Assembly (NCBI GenBank): GCA_043739185.1
Contig: JAYUEN010000332.1
Coordinates: 1-64,000, forward strand
DNA: 64,000 nt
Reading direction: 5' to 3'
Origin: Bdellovibrionales bacterium
GTDB taxonomy: Bacteria > Bdellovibrionota > Bdellovibrionia > Bdellovibrionales > JAMPXM01
The position numbers were made by a program. The stretch's first letter is position 1, and every line of letters begins with the position of its first letter. Below, one piece after another: positions 3,001 to 9,000 of this stretch.

Positions 3001-6000
3001 TACCAGTATATGACGGGGCTCGATCTTTATGCCCTACCTAGCTACAAAGAATGTTTTGCATTGAGTTTATTAGAGGCTCAGTTAGCAGGGCTCCCGGTAT
3101 TGGGAACCTCTTCTGGAGGCACGCCTGATATTGTGATCGAGGACCAAACCGGATTTTTATTTGAGCCCGAAAGCGCCCCGTCGGCAGGTGAAGCCTTAAA
3201 ACGCGCCTTAACAAAGCAAAATCTCTGGAAGGACTTCGGCGCTCGGGCGCGAGCGCGGGTGATTGAAGAATTCGATTTTAAAAAGATCTGTGGTCTCGTT
3301 ATCGAGAAATATCTTAGGCTTGCAAATTCTTAGTCGCTAGTACCAGAATGAGCGGCTCGCTCTTGGGTTTTTATATTCGACCTACTTAAACTTTCTACCG
3401 CGCTAAAAGTATCTTTGCTAGGAAAGCCAAATGTCCAATCGATGCCATCGCCTGTTAGTCCGAAAGTATTAAATTTAGCGGCGCCGTTGGTTCCGGCAAT
3501 CAACAATCGAGCACCTTGAGTTGATCCGGCATCATTCCATGAGTCTTGGCGCTTACCGGAATTACAAGCTTCAGACATTTGAGGCAAGTACGGCTTATCT
3601 TCCAACGAATATGAGGTTGTCTTTGAATCACCATCTTTAACCTCGGTAAATGCAACTTTGGTCTCAGAAAGCTTGCTTGATTTCATTGAAATTTTGACCC
3701 GACATTTTTGAATTGCCGCCAAAGTCTGGGCCTTGTCGGCTTCACTTATAAATTCTTTGGGTAATTTATTTTTCTGTGCACAAACAGCTCTGCGAATAGC
3801 CGTCATTGTTTTTGCAGAAAGTGGCGCATTCATTACAATTCCGGCAGAACCTTTATTCAAAAGCTCACCGCTATTTGAAGAGCCTAACATGCGAAGATCC
3901 ACACATTGAGCAGAGGATTTTCCTAGCGCTTTGGCAATACGCTCAGTAATCGCGTTTTGCATGCCTGGATCGGCTGCATTCGAAATATCGATGGTGTACA
4001 TATAAACTCGCGGTGCGTTTTCAGCATGGAGCTGTCCAGCCAAAAGCAAAGCAAAAGCAATAGCAAATATACCTCGCATAGAGCCCTCCTACTTTGATTC
4101 TATAGCAAAATAATATGTCGAACGAGTCTAGTAATTGGACGAGGAGGGGTCTTTAGTTCATGTACAACAAACCTAAAATGCTGCCAGTATATACTGACCC
4201 ACTGAAGACCGACCACCGAAACTGCCAAGCGGCTAACAGCTGCGGCTGCCGTTAAAACTGCTTTGAATTCTAGATTTTAAACTAGTTTTCTTGGCAGCCG
4301 CAGCTGTTAGCCGCTTGGCAGTTTCGGTCTCAGATTTCGGAGTGACAGTTTGGCATTTTGCAAAGCCTGTTTTTTAGGCGGTCATACGAACTTCGAATCA
4401 AAATTATGTGCGCTCAATTGTATGTGATTTTGGAATATCATTCTTCATATTTTTCAGGCTGAAAGCGGCTCTCCTCGCAGAAATAATCTTTTAAGCTTTG
4501 CAAGAGAAGACATTATCAGTACTCTTTTTTGGTGAGTACAAAACCTATTTTAATAGTGGCCGAAAAGCCATCGGTGGCACGCGATATCGCAAAAGTCGTG
4601 AAAGCCAATCGCCTTCAGCGTGGTTATATTGAGGGCGATACCCATATCGTCACTTGGGCAATTGGGCATCTTGTGACTTTGCCTGAGCCTCATCAAATCA
4701 ATTTGAAATGGAAGACCTGGAGCTTGGCCCAGCTTCCGATGTTGCCGACTGAGTGGCCACTCGTTGCAAGCGCGCGAACCATAGAGCAATATGAAGTTGT
4801 TCGAAAATTAATGGATGCTTGTGATTCCGTAATTTGTGCCACAGATGCCGGACGTGAAGGCGAACTCATCTTTCGCTATATTTATGAATTGGCAGCTTGT
4901 CAGAAGCCAGTGAAGCGTCTGTGGATTTCTTCTCTTACGAAGCAAGCAATCGAAACCGGATTGAATAAGCTCAAGGACTCAAGTGAATTTGATAGTCTTG
5001 CCGATGCGGCTCGCGCCCGAAGTCGCGCGGATTGGCTTGTCGGAATGAATTTATCTCGTGCTTATGCTCTCAAATCCCAAGAGCAACTATTTGTAGGCCG
5101 TGTTCAGACTCCTACCTTGGCGATGATTGTTGAGCGCGATCTTAAAATTCGGGATTTCATCTCTGAAGAATACGAAACTATTGAAGCCGAATTTGAAGCT
5201 GGATCAAAGTTCAAAGCCAATTATCTCGGTGAACAAGATGAAATTAAAAAGCCGATGATCCGTGCGAAAGAAAAACGCTTTCCGCGCAAATCAGAAAACA
5301 TTGCGACTGTTCTAAAGAGGTTTTTCGAAGGCTCTTCTCAGATTTTGCAAAACGAATCTAAAAAGAATGTGACTCCACCACCACTTCTGTATGATTTAAC
5401 CGATTTGCAACGAAGTGCGAACCAGACTTATTCCTTTTCGGCAAATCAGACTTTGGAGCTTGCACAGAGTCTTTATGAAAAGCACAAATTGATTAGTTAT
5501 CCACGTACTGGGAGCCAACACCTATCTGTAAGTGTGGCGCAGACCTTGCCTGATATTGTAAAAGCCATTCGTGAACCATACGAAGAGCTGATCGAAAACT
5601 TCACGGGCGCCGCAGTTTTGAGCAATCGGTTTGTTGATGATACCCAAGTCACCGATCACCATGCGATTATACCTACGGGCAAGAATGGGCCTCATCGCGC
5701 GCTCAGTTCAGATGAAAGCAAAATCTATGATCTCATTTGCCGAAGACTATTATCTGCTTGGCAACCAGATAATATTGCAGAGGTGACAAATATTTTAGTT
5801 ATCAGTGCGCAAAAAGATATTTTTAAGACTACGGGCACAGTGATTTCTCAAATCGGCTGGAAGAAACTCCTTGTGACCACGAGAGACCGCAACGTCCAGG
5901 CTACACTTCCCGCAGGACTCTTGCCCGGCACTTCTGTTAAACCAGTTTCTGCAAAAGCCTTGCCGAAAAAAACCGAGCCCCCTCCACATCTCAACGACGC

Positions 6001-9000
6001 TACTCTGCTGAGCCTCATGGAATCCGCAGGTAAAAACATTGACAATGTTGAGCTTGCTCGAGCCATGAAAGACTCGGGCCTTGGTACTCCTGCGACTCGC
6101 GCCAATATCATTGAGACTCTTGTTACGCGAAATTATATTGAGCGAAAAGCCAAATCAATTATCGCGACCGAGTTGGGGCATCGCCTGATTTCGGTGGTTC
6201 ATCCATCGGTGAAGAGCCCTGAGCTGACGGGTCGCTGGGAGAAAAAGCTTTCTGAAATTCAAAATAAAAAAGAGTCTCTAGCTCAATTTATCTCTGAACT
6301 TGAGACTGAAATTGCGTTACGTATCAAAGAAATCAAAGAGCAACAAGCGCCAGTAGCAGCAGTGGCGGCGCCCTTAGTTGAGACCAGAAAAAAGACCGCG
6401 CCTGAAGACTTGGCAAAACTTTTGAAAAATCGATTTGGATTTAAAGAGTTCAGACAATCTCAAGAAGCTGTTTGCAAAGCCGTTGTTGCTGGGAAAAATA
6501 TTTTATTGGTCATGCCGACTGGCGCGGGCAAATCGCTCTGCTATCAATTGCCAACTATCGCTCGCGGCGGAACTTGCCTTGTGATCAGTCCCCTCATTGC
6601 ACTTATTGAAGATCAAGTGGCAAAGCTTTCCTCACTTGGCTTTGCTGCTGAACGTATACACTCGGGGAGAACACGTGAGGACTCACGAAACATCTGCAGA
6701 AAGTATCTGCAAAACGAACTTGATTTTCTTTTTATTTCACCAGAACGCTTGGGCGTACCTGGATTTTCTGAATTTCTTGCGCGCATTCCTTTGGCGCTTA
6801 TTGCAGTTGATGAGGCCCATTGTATTTCTCAGTGGGGCCATGATTTTCGTCCGGACTATCGACTTCTGGGTGAACGAATCAAAGATTTTGGCTTGACGCC
6901 TATTATTGCGATGACTGCAACTGCTACTCCAATTGTTCAAGATGACATTTGCAAACAGCTCAATTTAAAAAATGAAAGCCGTTATATTGAGGGATTTCGC
7001 CGGTCGAATATCAATATCCAAGTTGTAGAAGTAGCGCCAAGCGAAAGGGAAAACTCTATTTTTAAAATACTTAAAACTAAAGATCGTGTTCCCGCCATTG
7101 TGTATGCTCCGACTCGTAAAAAAACCGTAGAGCTTAGTGAAGCTCTTTCAGAAAAATTTCGCACCGGCTCTTATCATGCCGGAATGACTCCCGAAGCACG
7201 CAGTCGCGTTCAAACAGATTTCATCAACGGAAAACTAGATGTCATCATTGCAACGGTCGCATTTGGAATGGGAATCGATAAACCGAATGTTCGCACTGTG
7301 ATCCATGCAAGTCTGCCTGGCAGTGTTGAGGCTTACTATCAGGAGATTGGGAGGGCCGGGCGAGACGGAAAAACCTCAGAAGCTTATTTGCTTTATTCTT
7401 ATGCGGATCAGAAGACCCACGAGTTTTTTCTTGAAATGAATTATCCTAGCCAAAGCGTTCTACAGAAAATTTATTCGCAATTGCGAGATGATGTATCAGT
7501 TGAAAAAAATTATATAAGAAGTCAGTTGACCACCTTAGACTCTCAGGTTTTTGAACGCGCCATTGAACAACTTTGGGTTCATCGTGGAGCTCTTGTTGAT
7601 CCAGATGAAAGCATGAAACGTGGGTCCGATGCCTGGTTGATCACCTACCCTGAGCAGCGCAGACAAAAAGAGCTCCAACTTGAACAAATTTGGAGTTACG
7701 CAAATGGTGGCACAGTGAAACGCTGTCGCATGCAGACACTAGTAGCTCACTTTGGTGACCGCGCCGAAATAGAAATCCGGTGTGAAGCCTGCGATATTTG
7801 CAAACCTGAAAACAGAGTTTCATTGATTGCAAAACGTCAATTGAGCACGCAAGAGGAGAATTTAGTCGTTCAGATTTTTCAAATCTTATCGCAAGAAAAA
7901 AATCAGGCCATGGGTCGTATTTTTGATCGTCTCACGCAGACTGCGCCGAAATTGAAAAGGCAGATTTTTGAGCGCTTGATCGCAGAACTTGAACGCCTTG
8001 GTCAAGTCATTCTCGTTGAAGACTCTTTTGAGAAAAATGGTGAGTTGATTCGATATAGAAAAGCAGCTTTGCATCCTCAAGCGCGCATTCAAAATTTTGA
8101 TATGAGCGCAATTCAGATTTCTGGTAACGCGCCTAAAAAAAGATTATCAAAGAAAAAAGAGCGCGTAGCAAAAAGTTCTAAGTTAAGAAAAAAGCGAGAT
8201 GTTGGAGTTTTAAATGGGTCTCCTGACTTTGAGCGGATAAGGGCTTGGCGGCTTTCGCAAGCACGACGTTTAGGGATTCCTGCTTTTCGAATATTAACTG
8301 ATCGCGTGCTCGAGACAATTTGCGAAGTTCGTCCTGCTAATAAAACTCAGCTCCGTGCTATTTCGGGAGTGGGTCAAAAGGCTGTTGAGCAATATGGTGA
8401 TGAGATCGTAGCTCTTCTCATCTAAGAAAAATCGAAGAGTCCAAAATAAATGGACCCTTCGTTGCCTAAGTCGTCGGCTGCTGCGACCTAACTACTCTTT
8501 GTTATCTTTATTAATCAAAGCAGCAAATGGATTATTAAACGGCGATTGTTGCTGACGTTGGCCTGGACGCTGATTTTGCTGTGGTCGATTTTGATTTCCA
8601 GGTCGTTGCTCTCGAGCTTGAGGTGCTTGCTGAGATCGCTCCGCTTGTGCAGGTGCTGCCGCAGGAGTTGCAGTTTCAGTTGCAGCTGGCACTTCAGCAT
8701 TAGGCACCGGTCGATCTCGCTTCATTTCTTTTTTCTTTGGAGGCTTTGCTGCTAAACGCTCCCGCACAATCTGACTTGCGGTTTTATGTTTATTAGCTTC
8801 GCGTTGCTTTCCAAAAAGATCTGCTTGAGCCTGAGGAGTCAAATTTTTAGCCATTGGAGTTTCAGTAGCGTTTCGATCTGACCTTGGGCCACGATCAGGG
8901 CGATCTCCCCTTGGACGTTGCTCATTTCGATCTGGTCTTTCGCCAGCCGGACGCGCCATCTTCTCTTCGAAATCTTGACGGTACTTCTTTTCATTCGGAT

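Follow-up and report, generated by a model that had tools for sequence, protein, structure and literature searches.

Analysis of a 64,000-nt stretch of a Bdellovibrionales contig (JAYUEN010000332.1, positions 1 to 64,000; here called the window) identified an authentic, conserved single-chain protein that consists of a DNA topoisomerase III (Topo III) followed by a RecQ helicase; the catalytic set of each half is intact. It is encoded in one conserved frame, its motifs are intact and conserved across the family, and the topoisomerase halves of that family have one origin. We estimate a probability of about two in three that this is a working two-enzyme protein in which RecQ feeds DNA to the tethered Topo III for decatenation or dissolution. 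Such a fusion would supply, ready-made and in a single chain, a repair machine that is built elsewhere from separate proteins.

The fusion gene occupies positions 4532 to 8425 on the plus strand (the strand of all features described below) as an uninterrupted open reading frame of 1,297 codons plus a stop. Translation may start at the GTG at 4532 or at a TTG at 4529, giving 1,297 to 1,298 amino acids. The public gene call, P0002, is 100% identical to the fusion and has 1,289 amino acids, which means that its start lies eight codons downstream and would cost part of the first Toprim strand; residues 7 to 14 (LIVAEKPS) pair with residues 3 to 10 (LFIAEKPS) of Escherichia coli Topo III. The junction between the halves is genuine and no assembly artifact because two more samples of the same study yielded contigs that cross it gap-free, one of 1,349 nt spanning positions 5686 to 7034 (13 substitutions, 0 gaps) and one of 826 nt spanning 5739 to 6564 (15 substitutions, 0 gaps). 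A further contig of 5,129 nt spans positions 4400 to 8500 with 0 differences (two runs, possibly the source of the same DNA). The first-pass annotation had described Topo III and RecQ in a single frame, and the reading frame, Pfam, NCBIfam, and motif positions agree with this. Its domain boundaries were reproduced, although with a Topoisom_bac E value of 5.6e-108 instead of 2e-108, and GAGKS at 664, DEAH at 760, TAT at 795, and Tyr323 were found where it had placed them. However, the gene, said to be in the middle of the contig, sits 4.5 kb from the contig start.

The Topo III core extends from residue 7 to approximately residue 600 and comprises a Toprim domain (Pfam; residues 7 to 134, positions 4550 to 4933) and the Topoisom_bac core (Pfam; residues 153 to 587, positions 4988 to 6292). 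It scores above the cutoffs of NF005829 (NCBIfam DNA topoisomerase 3; 659.1 bits versus 597) and TIGR01056 (topoisomerase III; 550.3 versus 515.75), and residues 7 to 602 align with the E. coli Topo III structures 1d6m (E value, 9.1e-87) and 1i7d (3.4e-86). In the HMMER alignment, the predicted catalytic tyrosine, Tyr323 (codon at 5498 to 5500; HKLISYPRT, from residue 318), pairs with Tyr328 of the E. coli enzyme (HKLITYPRS). Across an alignment of 121 family members, the source of all family conservation counts, Tyr323, Arg325, His376, and His377 are conserved in 120 rows (1 gap), and Asp105, Gly107, and Glu109 are conserved in 117 (4 gaps). Glu11 is followed by Lys12, and a lysine right after the first Toprim glutamate is a Topo III signature according to the available part of PMC10969213; the lysine is found in 109 of the 121 rows, the other 12 being gaps at truncated N termini. 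Three members of the Toprim acidic set, Glu11, Asp105, and Glu109, are present, whereas Gly107 replaces the second aspartate (D105-A-G107-R-E109), so that the motif reads DxGxE instead of the usual DxDxE. Every one of the 117 fusion rows without a gap has the same DxGxE, as do all of the 120 nearest short TopB matches and 14 of 14 stand-alone TopBs examined, including that of Listeria (DAGREGE). This distribution argues for a trait of this Topo III subfamily and not for a defect or decay. Enzymes of the DxGxE subfamily are reportedly active, as in the B. cereus work of Li, Hiasa, and DiGate. A loop at approximately residues 232 to 255 is basic and similar in length to the decatenation-loop region of E. 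coli Topo III (domain IV/II), which we take to be approximately residues 241 to 255; its sequence is not conserved.

The C-terminal half (residues 631 to 1297) contains the motor, zinc cluster, predicted winged helix, and HRDC domain of a RecQ helicase. The motor (residues 631 to 962, positions 6422 to 7417; Pfam rows DEAD 642 to 800 and Helicase_C 842 to 946) carries FRxxQ (640 to 644), GAGKS (664 to 668), DEAH (760 to 763), TAT (795 to 797, within a TATAT starting at 795), and QxxGRxGR (937 to 944), each invariant in 121 of 121 family rows, as are Lys667, Gln937, Arg941, and Arg944. Residues 629 to 962 align with the E. coli RecQ core 1oyw (E value, approximately 4e-82). The zinc-binding subdomain (residues 1035 to 1092, positions 7634 to 7807; PF16124 at 1040 to 1091, 30.2 versus a cutoff of 25) has four cysteines (1065, 1084, 1087, and 1090) that are conserved in every row (121/121), and the HRDC domain (residues 1233 to 1295, positions 8228 to 8416; PF00570, 67.3 versus a cutoff of 23.8) also matches the RecQ HRDC structure 2ma1 (E value, 6.5e-13). 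The segment from residue 1106 to 1180 (positions 7847 to 8071) had no Pfam match and is a predicted RQC-like winged helix, modeled by AlphaFold as three helices and a beta-hairpin. Between it and the HRDC domain is a basic, low-confidence spacer (residues 1204 to 1225, positions 8141 to 8206; pLDDT of <50 at model residues 580 to 601). The AlphaFold model of the RecQ half has a pLDDT of 85.7 and a pTM of 0.77, and its top Foldseek matches are the RecQ catalytic cores 4tmu and 1oyw, winged helix included; sequence and fold searches also place BLM cores among the best matches. The RecQ half exceeds the cutoff of TIGR00614 (RecQ family; 395.6 bits versus 219.8) but stays below that of the RecQ equivalog TIGR01389 (502.4 versus 640.2), which it matches in two stretches. 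The break point is a subfamily-specific insert of approximately 70 residues (963 to 1034, positions 7418 to 7633), and ordinary RecQs break at profile positions 343 to 412, that is, at this insert. Near-invariant residues cluster around 1012 to 1042. The insert had no Pfam match and is predicted to be an extra winged-helix-like module of three helices (model residues 350 to 359, 368 to 374, and 380 to 392) and a beta-hairpin (396 to 398 and 403 to 406; adding 624 gives the protein residue).

The fusion belongs to a large, old family. It was confirmed in 33 of 301 Myxococcota genomes, 5 of 301 Acidobacteriota genomes, and 5 of 301 genomes of its own phylum (probably Bdellovibrionota); within its own order, the gene was found in only 2 of 68 genomes. 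The uniqueness that the first-pass annotation had implied was not borne out, as thousands of database proteins have the same Topo III-RecQ build, with Myxococcus xanthus among the cultured carriers. For example, proteins from M. xanthus (WP_237077988.1) and Solibacter usitatus (Q01NZ0) carry every domain of the fusion in a single polypeptide. Beyond the nearest metagenomic kin, relatives are 47 to 57% identical to the fusion. Myxobacterial fusions are longer (1,400 to 1,720 amino acids), in keeping with the longer linkers of other family members that were measured. Relatives are annotated as DNA topoisomerase 3, recombinase RecQ, or ATP-dependent DNA helicase RecQ, none of which reflects the fusion, and no published description of a Topo III-RecQ fusion was found in the literature searched; the design is conserved yet apparently unstudied. 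Trees of both halves were quick searches under LG+G4, with SH-aLRT as the only support measure. In the topoisomerase tree, 47 fusions and 4 short forms form one clade (SH-aLRT of 99) separate from the zinc-ribbon TopBs, which points to a single computed origin of the topoisomerase half and to a fusion that is old and has been retained.

RecQ replaces the zinc-ribbon tail found in stand-alone relatives, as own-phylum stand-alone TopBs have zinc-ribbon tails of 120 to 200 residues exactly where RecQ begins. The Topo III that had been called complete is complete in its catalytic core but lacks the C-terminal DNA-binding tail of those relatives. This position would also suit a protein that is mainly a Topo III, with RecQ as a DNA-structure-targeting C-terminal domain whose motor is dispensable or merely regulatory. 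Two variants speak for such a role. One, P0329, retains its topoisomerase motifs, the winged helix, and the zinc cysteines, but Walker A, DEAH, TAT, and the arginine finger are all missing; in the other, P0122, the motor is gone, leaving only the topoisomerase and a winged helix. These variants suggest that helicase activity is not always needed. However, each is a single sequence on a short contig (4.5 and 8.9 kb), whereas all ATPase motifs are intact here and in 121 of 121 aligned members, and we regard a mere targeting role as quite improbable.

The two halves are joined by a linker (residues 588 to 630, positions 6293 to 6421) without cysteines. It measures 44 residues between F586, the last residue invariant in the topoisomerase half, and L631, the first one invariant in the RecQ half. 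The same interval is 39 to 182 residues long (median, 55) in the 121 members; it is variable, with a high content of Pro, Ala, Ser, Glu, and Arg. A disordered linker with an approximately 4-fold length range implies no fixed geometry between the halves and would suit tethering rather than a rigid machine like reverse gyrase. The same flexible, low-complexity character would agree with halves that act independently, the fusion securing only equal expression or colocalization and no coupled reaction; simple coexpression could conceivably be its sole benefit. The RecQ tree lends this some weight: stand-alone RecQs of this subfamily branch from within the fusions at no fewer than four places, and most family f22 genomes with such a RecQ had no Topo III match, which suggests that a RecQ of this subfamily can evidently work without the topoisomerase. 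Nevertheless, independence appears unlikely. The fusion has been retained across at least three phyla with topoisomerase halves of one clade, RecQ replaces a DNA-binding tail required by stand-alone relatives, the genes of the unfused partners lie side by side in Listeria, and the available text of PMC8185306 reports cooperation of the partners in E. coli and eukaryotes.

In the favored reading, in which RecQ feeds the tethered Topo III, the Topo III core would cut one DNA strand via Tyr323, with the metal held by Glu11, Asp105, and Glu109, and pass a second strand through the break. The C-terminal half, a presumably complete RecQ 3′-5′ helicase, would use its winged-helix and HRDC modules, together with the extra winged-helix-like one, to recognize branched or gapped DNA, spend ATP on opening duplex or migrating branches, and hand single-stranded DNA to the topoisomerase kept near by the flexible tether, which would then unlink the strands. 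The likely jobs would be the same as for separate RecQ and Topo III, namely, unlinking of converging replication forks and precatenanes and crossover-free dissolution of hemicatenanes or double Holliday junctions. We infer each biochemical step, as well as action of both halves on the same DNA molecule. The proposal of the first-pass annotation, a mesophilic one-enzyme dissolvasome, holds for the architecture and for a domain order opposite to that of reverse gyrase; the label mesophilic derives only from the sediment-metagenome origin and the lineage, and joint activity is extrapolated from separate RecQ and Topo III. Double-Holliday-junction dissolution and decatenation by the fusion as one enzyme may reasonably be expected on these grounds.

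Among known systems, E. coli RecQ and TopB with SSB belong to the same two enzyme families and have the same catalytic residues as the fusion. The RecQ and Topo III pair, reportedly the subject of Harmon et al. in 1999, catalyzes strand passage and resolves converging forks. Unlike this pair, the fusion is one polypeptide, its RecQ has the extra insert and falls short of TIGR01389 (502 versus 640), and its Topo III, a member of the NF005829 (Bacillus/Listeria-type) subfamily, has the DxGxE motif and lacks its own C-terminal tail. The available portion of PMC13220808 describes E. coli SSB as a hub that assembles both Topo III and RecQ; in the fusion, the covalent link would do the job by which SSB brings the two together in other bacteria. 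The eukaryotic dissolvasome (BLM-TOP3A-RMI1/2 or Sgs1-Top3-Rmi1) likewise combines an HRDC-bearing RecQ-family helicase with a type IA Topo III, but it is noncovalent, the disordered N terminus of the helicase binds Top3, and the OB-fold protein RMI1 is needed.

Reverse gyrase is restricted to hyperthermophiles, and its tightly coupled helicase is an N-terminal, reduced, non-RecQ module. As far as the accessible part of PMC8185306 goes, no other natural protein in which an SF2 helicase-like module is fused to a type IA topoisomerase is well known. That the protein described here joins the same two classes, and that TIGR01054 weakly matches its topoisomerase part (129 bits), would fit use of ATP to alter supercoiling, for example, to positive, instead of unlinking or dissolving. 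This is very improbable, because the match is far below the cutoff of 471.7 and covers the topoisomerase core only, the two domains come in the opposite order, a long, variable linker separates them, and the helicase is not a reduced, latch-bearing one but a full RecQ that includes zinc, predicted winged-helix, and HRDC modules. Membership in the reverse gyrases was rejected on the same score and domain order. An unlikely but stronger version of the feeding model is an ATP-driven type IA unlinking motor, in which an active RecQ feeder would replace the passive zinc-ribbon tail, the insert would act as a latch or guide coupling the helicase cycle to gate opening, and the stand-alone RecQs would be secondary breakaways. 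If true, the fusion would be a mesophilic mirror-image counterpart of reverse gyrase whose output is decatenation or dissolution, not supercoiling.

In a profile search of the genome, only the fusion gene and a split TopA matched Topoisom_bac, so that the fusion is the sole topoisomerase III and no reverse gyrase is present; there are other RecQ-family genes, one with an HRDC domain. The gene lies within a 6.3-kb segment that is missing at the same locus of the nearest relative, and a palindromic repeat is found 200 bp upstream. Together with its rarity in its own order, an NCBIfam DpdF match of 219 bits, and the existence of plasmid-borne TopB genes and DpdF-like helicases, these features could indicate mobile-element cargo or an anti-phage part. 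However, the palindrome is a genome-wide repeat (65 matches), no conserved neighbor and no integrase, transposase, conjugation, or defense genes were found at five fusion loci, nor any such mobile or defense genes in the window flanks, and no plasmid (at least 5,000 matching records) or phage (59 matching) covers 80% of the protein, leaving this origin highly implausible. DpdF of the Dpd system itself was rejected, with a score (NF041063) of 219.4 against a cutoff of 550 and with TopA, a HAD hydrolase, a glycosyltransferase, and Tex as neighbors in the window.

In Listeria monocytogenes, a Topo III of the same subfamily is encoded next to recQ, on the same strand and 23 nt apart. In contrast to the fusion, the genes are separate and in the order recQ then topB, the Topo III keeps a cysteine-rich tail, and the RecQ is without the insert (broken there) and falls within the outgroup on the RecQ tree. 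This adjacency is an independent genome-context observation in support of RecQ-Topo III pairing.

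The Topo III-RecQ fusion gene is a single open reading frame on the plus strand of the window (positions 4529 or 4532 to 8425; 1297 or 1298 codons), as the first-pass annotation had claimed. The Pfam matches on which that annotation relied were reproduced in full (residue numbers are those of the fusion protein unless E. coli is stated): Toprim at residues 7 to 134, Topoisom_bac at 153 to 587 (E = 5.6e-108), DEAD at 642 to 800, Helicase_C at 842 to 946, RecQ_Zn_bind at 1040 to 1091, and HRDC at 1233 to 1295. Its two NCBIfam assignments also hold, since the protein scores 659.1 against the curated cutoff of 597 for DNA topoisomerase 3 (NF005829) and 395.6 against 219.8 for the RecQ family helicase (TIGR00614). 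The protein falls short of the cutoff of the strict RecQ equivalog, TIGR01389 (502.4 versus 640.2). Residues 7 to 602 align with the E. coli Topo III structures 1d6m, 1i7d, and 2o19 (E of about 9e-87), and Tyr323 (HKLISYPRT), previously proposed as the catalytic tyrosine, is aligned opposite E. coli Tyr328. Residues 629 to 962 align with the E. coli RecQ core, 1oyw (E of about 4e-82).

The junction between the two halves is real. A 5129-nt contig found in two runs, possibly the source of the window DNA itself, is identical over positions 4400 to 8500. A 1349-nt contig from another sample of the same study covers positions 5686 to 7034 across the junction with 13 substitutions and no gaps, and an 826-nt contig from a further sample covers 5739 to 6564, again across the junction, with 15 substitutions and no gaps. 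All four runs with matching contigs are DNA contigs of one sediment-metagenome study, with no RNA data set listed among them, and are thus of limited independence. The gap-free junction contigs, together with 120 further database clusters of the same build, rule out an assembly artifact or chimera.

The topoisomerase half is a complete catalytic core that contains Glu11-Lys12, Tyr323-Pro-Arg325, and His376-His377; a lysine after the first glutamate is described as a Topo III signature in a section of a review (PMC10969213). The Toprim motif reads D105-A-G107-R-E109, where the E. coli counterpart is D-P-D-R-E. A DxGxE motif might be taken as a sign of decay or of a dead topoisomerase, but this is ruled out because fusions and stand-alone TopBs have the motif in common: DAGREGE was found in all 117 ungapped fusion rows, in all 120 of the nearest shorter TopB matches, and in 14 of 14 stand-alone TopBs checked, Listeria monocytogenes among them. 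The motif thus characterizes the NF005829 subfamily. In the 121-member family alignment, the catalytic residues of both halves are invariant save for gaps at truncated ends. The stand-alone TopBs of the window's own phylum (loci L102 to L105 and L114), which is probably Bdellovibrionota to judge by how the nearest homologues are named, carry C-terminal tails of 120 to 200 residues in which the zinc-ribbon repeat CPxC...GC(S/K)F occurs once or twice, and the Listeria Topo III also has a cysteine-rich tail. The fusion lacks such zinc-ribbon tails, and its RecQ half starts at exactly that position.

The linker, measured from the last invariant topoisomerase residue to the first invariant RecQ residue, is 44 residues long here and contains no cysteine. 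The linkers of the 121 family members span 39 to 182 residues (median, 55), with an abundance of Pro, Ala, Ser, Glu, and Arg. The fold prediction for the RecQ half (38-row alignment; mean pLDDT, 85.7; pTM, 0.77) has RecQ and BLM cores as its best structural matches. Following the two motor lobes is a segment of about 70 residues that is without a counterpart in E. coli RecQ. In the model, this insert (residues 963 to 1034) shows three predicted helices and a beta-hairpin in a winged-helix-like order at about 974 to 1030. The zinc helices and four cysteines come directly after the insert and are followed by a predicted winged-helix domain (residues 1106 to 1180), a basic, low-confidence spacer (1204 to 1225), and finally the HRDC domain as the last module. 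Pfam returned only chance-level rows for the excised insert (963 to 1050) and for the winged-helix region. A complex prediction of topoisomerase residues 7 to 588 with RecQ residues 632 to 1045, run with alignments, scored 0.00 twice, which gives no verdict either way on binding.

The same build is widespread. A search with the junction region (residues 450 to 950) found Topoisom_bac plus DEAD in all 120 clusters listed, 115 of which are at least 1200 aa long. A search of long proteins with an Archangium topoisomerase fragment gave 2772 clusters of 1170 to 3340 aa (E ≤ 1e-100), and the full domain set was present in all 120 of these that were listed. After clustering at 50%, about 41 of the best 150 representatives, counted by eye, were at least 1100 aa. 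Among named carriers is Myxococcus xanthus, with proteins of 1592 to 1597 aa that are annotated as either "DNA topoisomerase 3" or "recombinase RecQ". Other carriers include M. stipitatus DSM 14675, Stigmatella aurantiaca DW4/3-1, Solibacter usitatus Ellin6076, Corallococcus coralloides, Cystobacter fuscus, and Archangium and Hyalangium species, as well as metagenome-assembled genomes labeled Bdellovibrionota, Oligoflexus, Thermoanaerobaculia, Gammaproteobacteria, and Zetaproteobacteria. A scan of named genomes, a sample and not a census, found at least five named fusions among the matches listed. In a DNA-damage proteomics study (PMC12288472), an M. xanthus "RecQ" that may be the fusion, MXAN_1950 (Q1DAY5), increased at the protein level, with a log2 change of 1.9 after 10 h of mitomycin C.

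Prevalence was estimated from samples of one genome per species. An open frame of at least 1200 aa proved an unreliable proxy in high-GC genomes, and the counts were therefore limited to frames with confirmation, which was either a match spanning the junction or a Topo III match within that frame. The long frames in G254 (1251 aa), G281 (1079 aa), G459, G575, and G571 were rejected as fusions because no Topo III was found in frame. Confirmed fusions numbered 5 of 301 in the window's own phylum, 5 of 301 in Acidobacteriota, the phylum of a Solibacteraceae genome (3 junction spanning and 2 with a same-frame Topo III match; 3 further long frames proved false), and 33 of 301 in Myxococcota, the phylum of a Polyangiaceae genome (10 junction spanning, 22 of 23 checked long frames, and the seed genome). 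Two genomes, G301 and G303 (those of loci L018 and L029), have, in addition to the fusion, a Topo III-type gene that stands alone, with frames of 831 and 908 aa.

In the topoisomerase tree (62 rows), 47 fusions and four short proteins form one clade (support, 99), separate from the zinc-ribbon TopBs of the window's phylum and from Listeria. The four short proteins end in the linker and are either real fissions or truncated gene calls. The window protein lies in a 19-row subclade (support, 99) that consists of fusions throughout and takes in every Bdellovibrionota-type name plus three of the four other fusions from the window's own phylum. In the RecQ tree (70 rows), the "fusion-type" RecQs group in one clade (support, 100) apart from 12 ordinary RecQs. 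Ten of the 11 stand-alone RecQs within this clade are nested among the fusions in at least four places, and the remaining one, from G281, is the first branch. Against a profile of the fusion's RecQ half, these stand-alone proteins scored 750 to 1035 bits in one piece, compared to about 400 to 500 for ordinary RecQs, whose matches were broken at the insert. Because both trees were quick searches (LG+G4) with SH-aLRT support only, the order of events is one that we infer; the simplest reading would be a single old fusion, after which several lines lost the topoisomerase half and some horizontal spread took place.

RecQ, Topo III, and their partnership are all textbook material. From bacteria to humans, RecQ helicases work together with type IA topoisomerases, and in humans, Bloom syndrome results when the helicase of the pair is lost. 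Debate continues on how the motor is coupled to the strand-passage gate, partly because the complexes are multiprotein and weakly associated. The primary papers on the RecQ-Topo III partnership include Harmon et al. 1999, Suski and Marians 2008, and Wu and Hickson 2003. For the fusion, we give odds of roughly two in three to a reading in which RecQ would open or migrate DNA and pass single strands to the tethered Topo III, which would then unlink replication or recombination intermediates. The covalent tether would take the place of recruitment via SSB or accessory subunits. Topo III and RecQ are both named among the E. coli SSB hub proteins in part of a review (PMC13220808), and Topo III-RecQ, Topo III-Sgs1, and Topo III-alpha-BLM are listed as hemicatenane-resolving partners in a passage of another paper (PMC8185306). 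Functional coupling is supported by L. monocytogenes, in which recQ and topB, unfused, follow one another on one strand with a 23-nt gap (L113; NZ_LR134400.1, positions 441829 to 445778, a 594-kb record filed as a plasmid and typed as nonmobilizable).

Some features argue against a tightly coupled machine. First, the linker is flexible, with a four-fold spread in length. Second, stand-alone RecQs of the subfamily occur in genomes without a Topo III match. Third, the motor has lost its motifs in one member and is missing from another. Judged by its motifs, P0329 (NCBI; 1193 aa) appears to be a natural dead-motor variant: its topoisomerase motifs are all intact, and the zinc cysteines and winged helix are still present, but Walker A, DEAH, TAT, and QxxGRxGR (the arginine finger) are gone from the RecQ half, which also has no HRDC. 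P0122 (ENA; 698 aa) has a topoisomerase core 54% identical to that of the window protein and, directly after it, a 76-residue tail that aligns with winged-helix residues 1106 to 1180 (28% identity; E = 1e-7), without the helicase motor, insert, or zinc module. These proteins, each a single sequence on a short contig (4.5 and 8.9 kb, respectively), hint that the RecQ part can also act simply as a DNA-targeting tail, one next to intact topoisomerase motifs with a dead motor and the other with the winged helix only.

As a single chain whose stoichiometry is fixed at 1:1, without accessory subunits and with its catalytic residues intact, the fusion would suit single-molecule and cryo-EM work. It is present in nonpathogenic, genetically tractable bacteria such as M. 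xanthus, and the natural dead- or deleted-motor variants offer built-in separation-of-function controls. As the family demonstrates, helicases have also become fused to type IA topoisomerases outside hyperthermophiles; the domain order is opposite to that of reverse gyrase. The fused build is already in public databases under generic names, and with thousands of proteins named only "DNA topoisomerase 3" or "RecQ", half of each protein is hidden. No description of a natural Topo III-RecQ fusion was found in the full-text literature searched, which holds few subscription journals, and phylogenomics papers or other wordings may mention it. A term search of a 2024 review of type IA diversity (PMC10969213) gave no match to the word RecQ.

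The window's genome (4.85 Mb in 540 contigs; 97.65% complete) has Topoisom_bac matches only in the fusion and in a TopA gene split over two contig ends, and the fusion is thus its sole Topo III. Four places, the fusion included, exceed the RecQ-family cutoff; the others are two short paralogues without HRDC (444 and 503 aa) and a gene, incomplete at a contig end, that encodes zinc and HRDC domains. Among 68 genomes of the order, a Topo III-type match was found in two, this one and G295; it is fused in both, and the G295 fusion lies at another locus. The split TopA gene (window positions 3 to 1445, minus strand, plus positions 7 to 453 of contig C217) has its start 3 kb from the fusion gene and is cut off by the beginning of the contig. 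The two type IA topoisomerase genes of this genome are therefore near neighbors, and the corresponding locus in G211, the only sampled genome of the same family, has only TopA of the two. The gene order there is LpxD, an unknown gene, Tex, about 470 bp, HAD hydrolase, and TopA. Here, the interval between the HAD hydrolase and Tex genes (about 2209 to 8490) contains a glycosyltransferase gene, an unknown gene (249 aa, no Pfam match), a palindromic repeat, and the fusion gene. Compared with L112 (contig C61 of G211), 6.3 kb has been gained or lost at a locus that is otherwise conserved.

Around five fusion loci, no shared neighbors, mobile-element genes, or defense genes were found. At one of them, L110 (G087, contig C25), a 1869-aa ORF with two HATPase_c-type matches (positions 11957 to 17566, minus strand) lies directly upstream of the fusion gene, and no such neighbor was found at the other four. 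None of the plasmid records (at least 5000 matching) or phage records (59 matching) covered at least 80% of the fusion protein. In the window, a Bdellovibrio-type SOS box (TTAC-N3-GTAA) was not seen by eye upstream of the fusion gene (positions 4380 to 4531). The palindrome (positions 4215 to 4328), 200 bp upstream of the gene, is 114 nt long with spacer-free 57-nt arms that are 88% complementary. It belongs to a repeat family for which 65 matches were counted across many of this genome's contigs (both strands included, the element being palindromic) and looks like a REP- or MITE-like element. Finally, between the convergent fusion and Tex genes, a hairpin with a T-run on the minus strand (positions 8433 to 8461) probably terminates Tex and may act for both genes.
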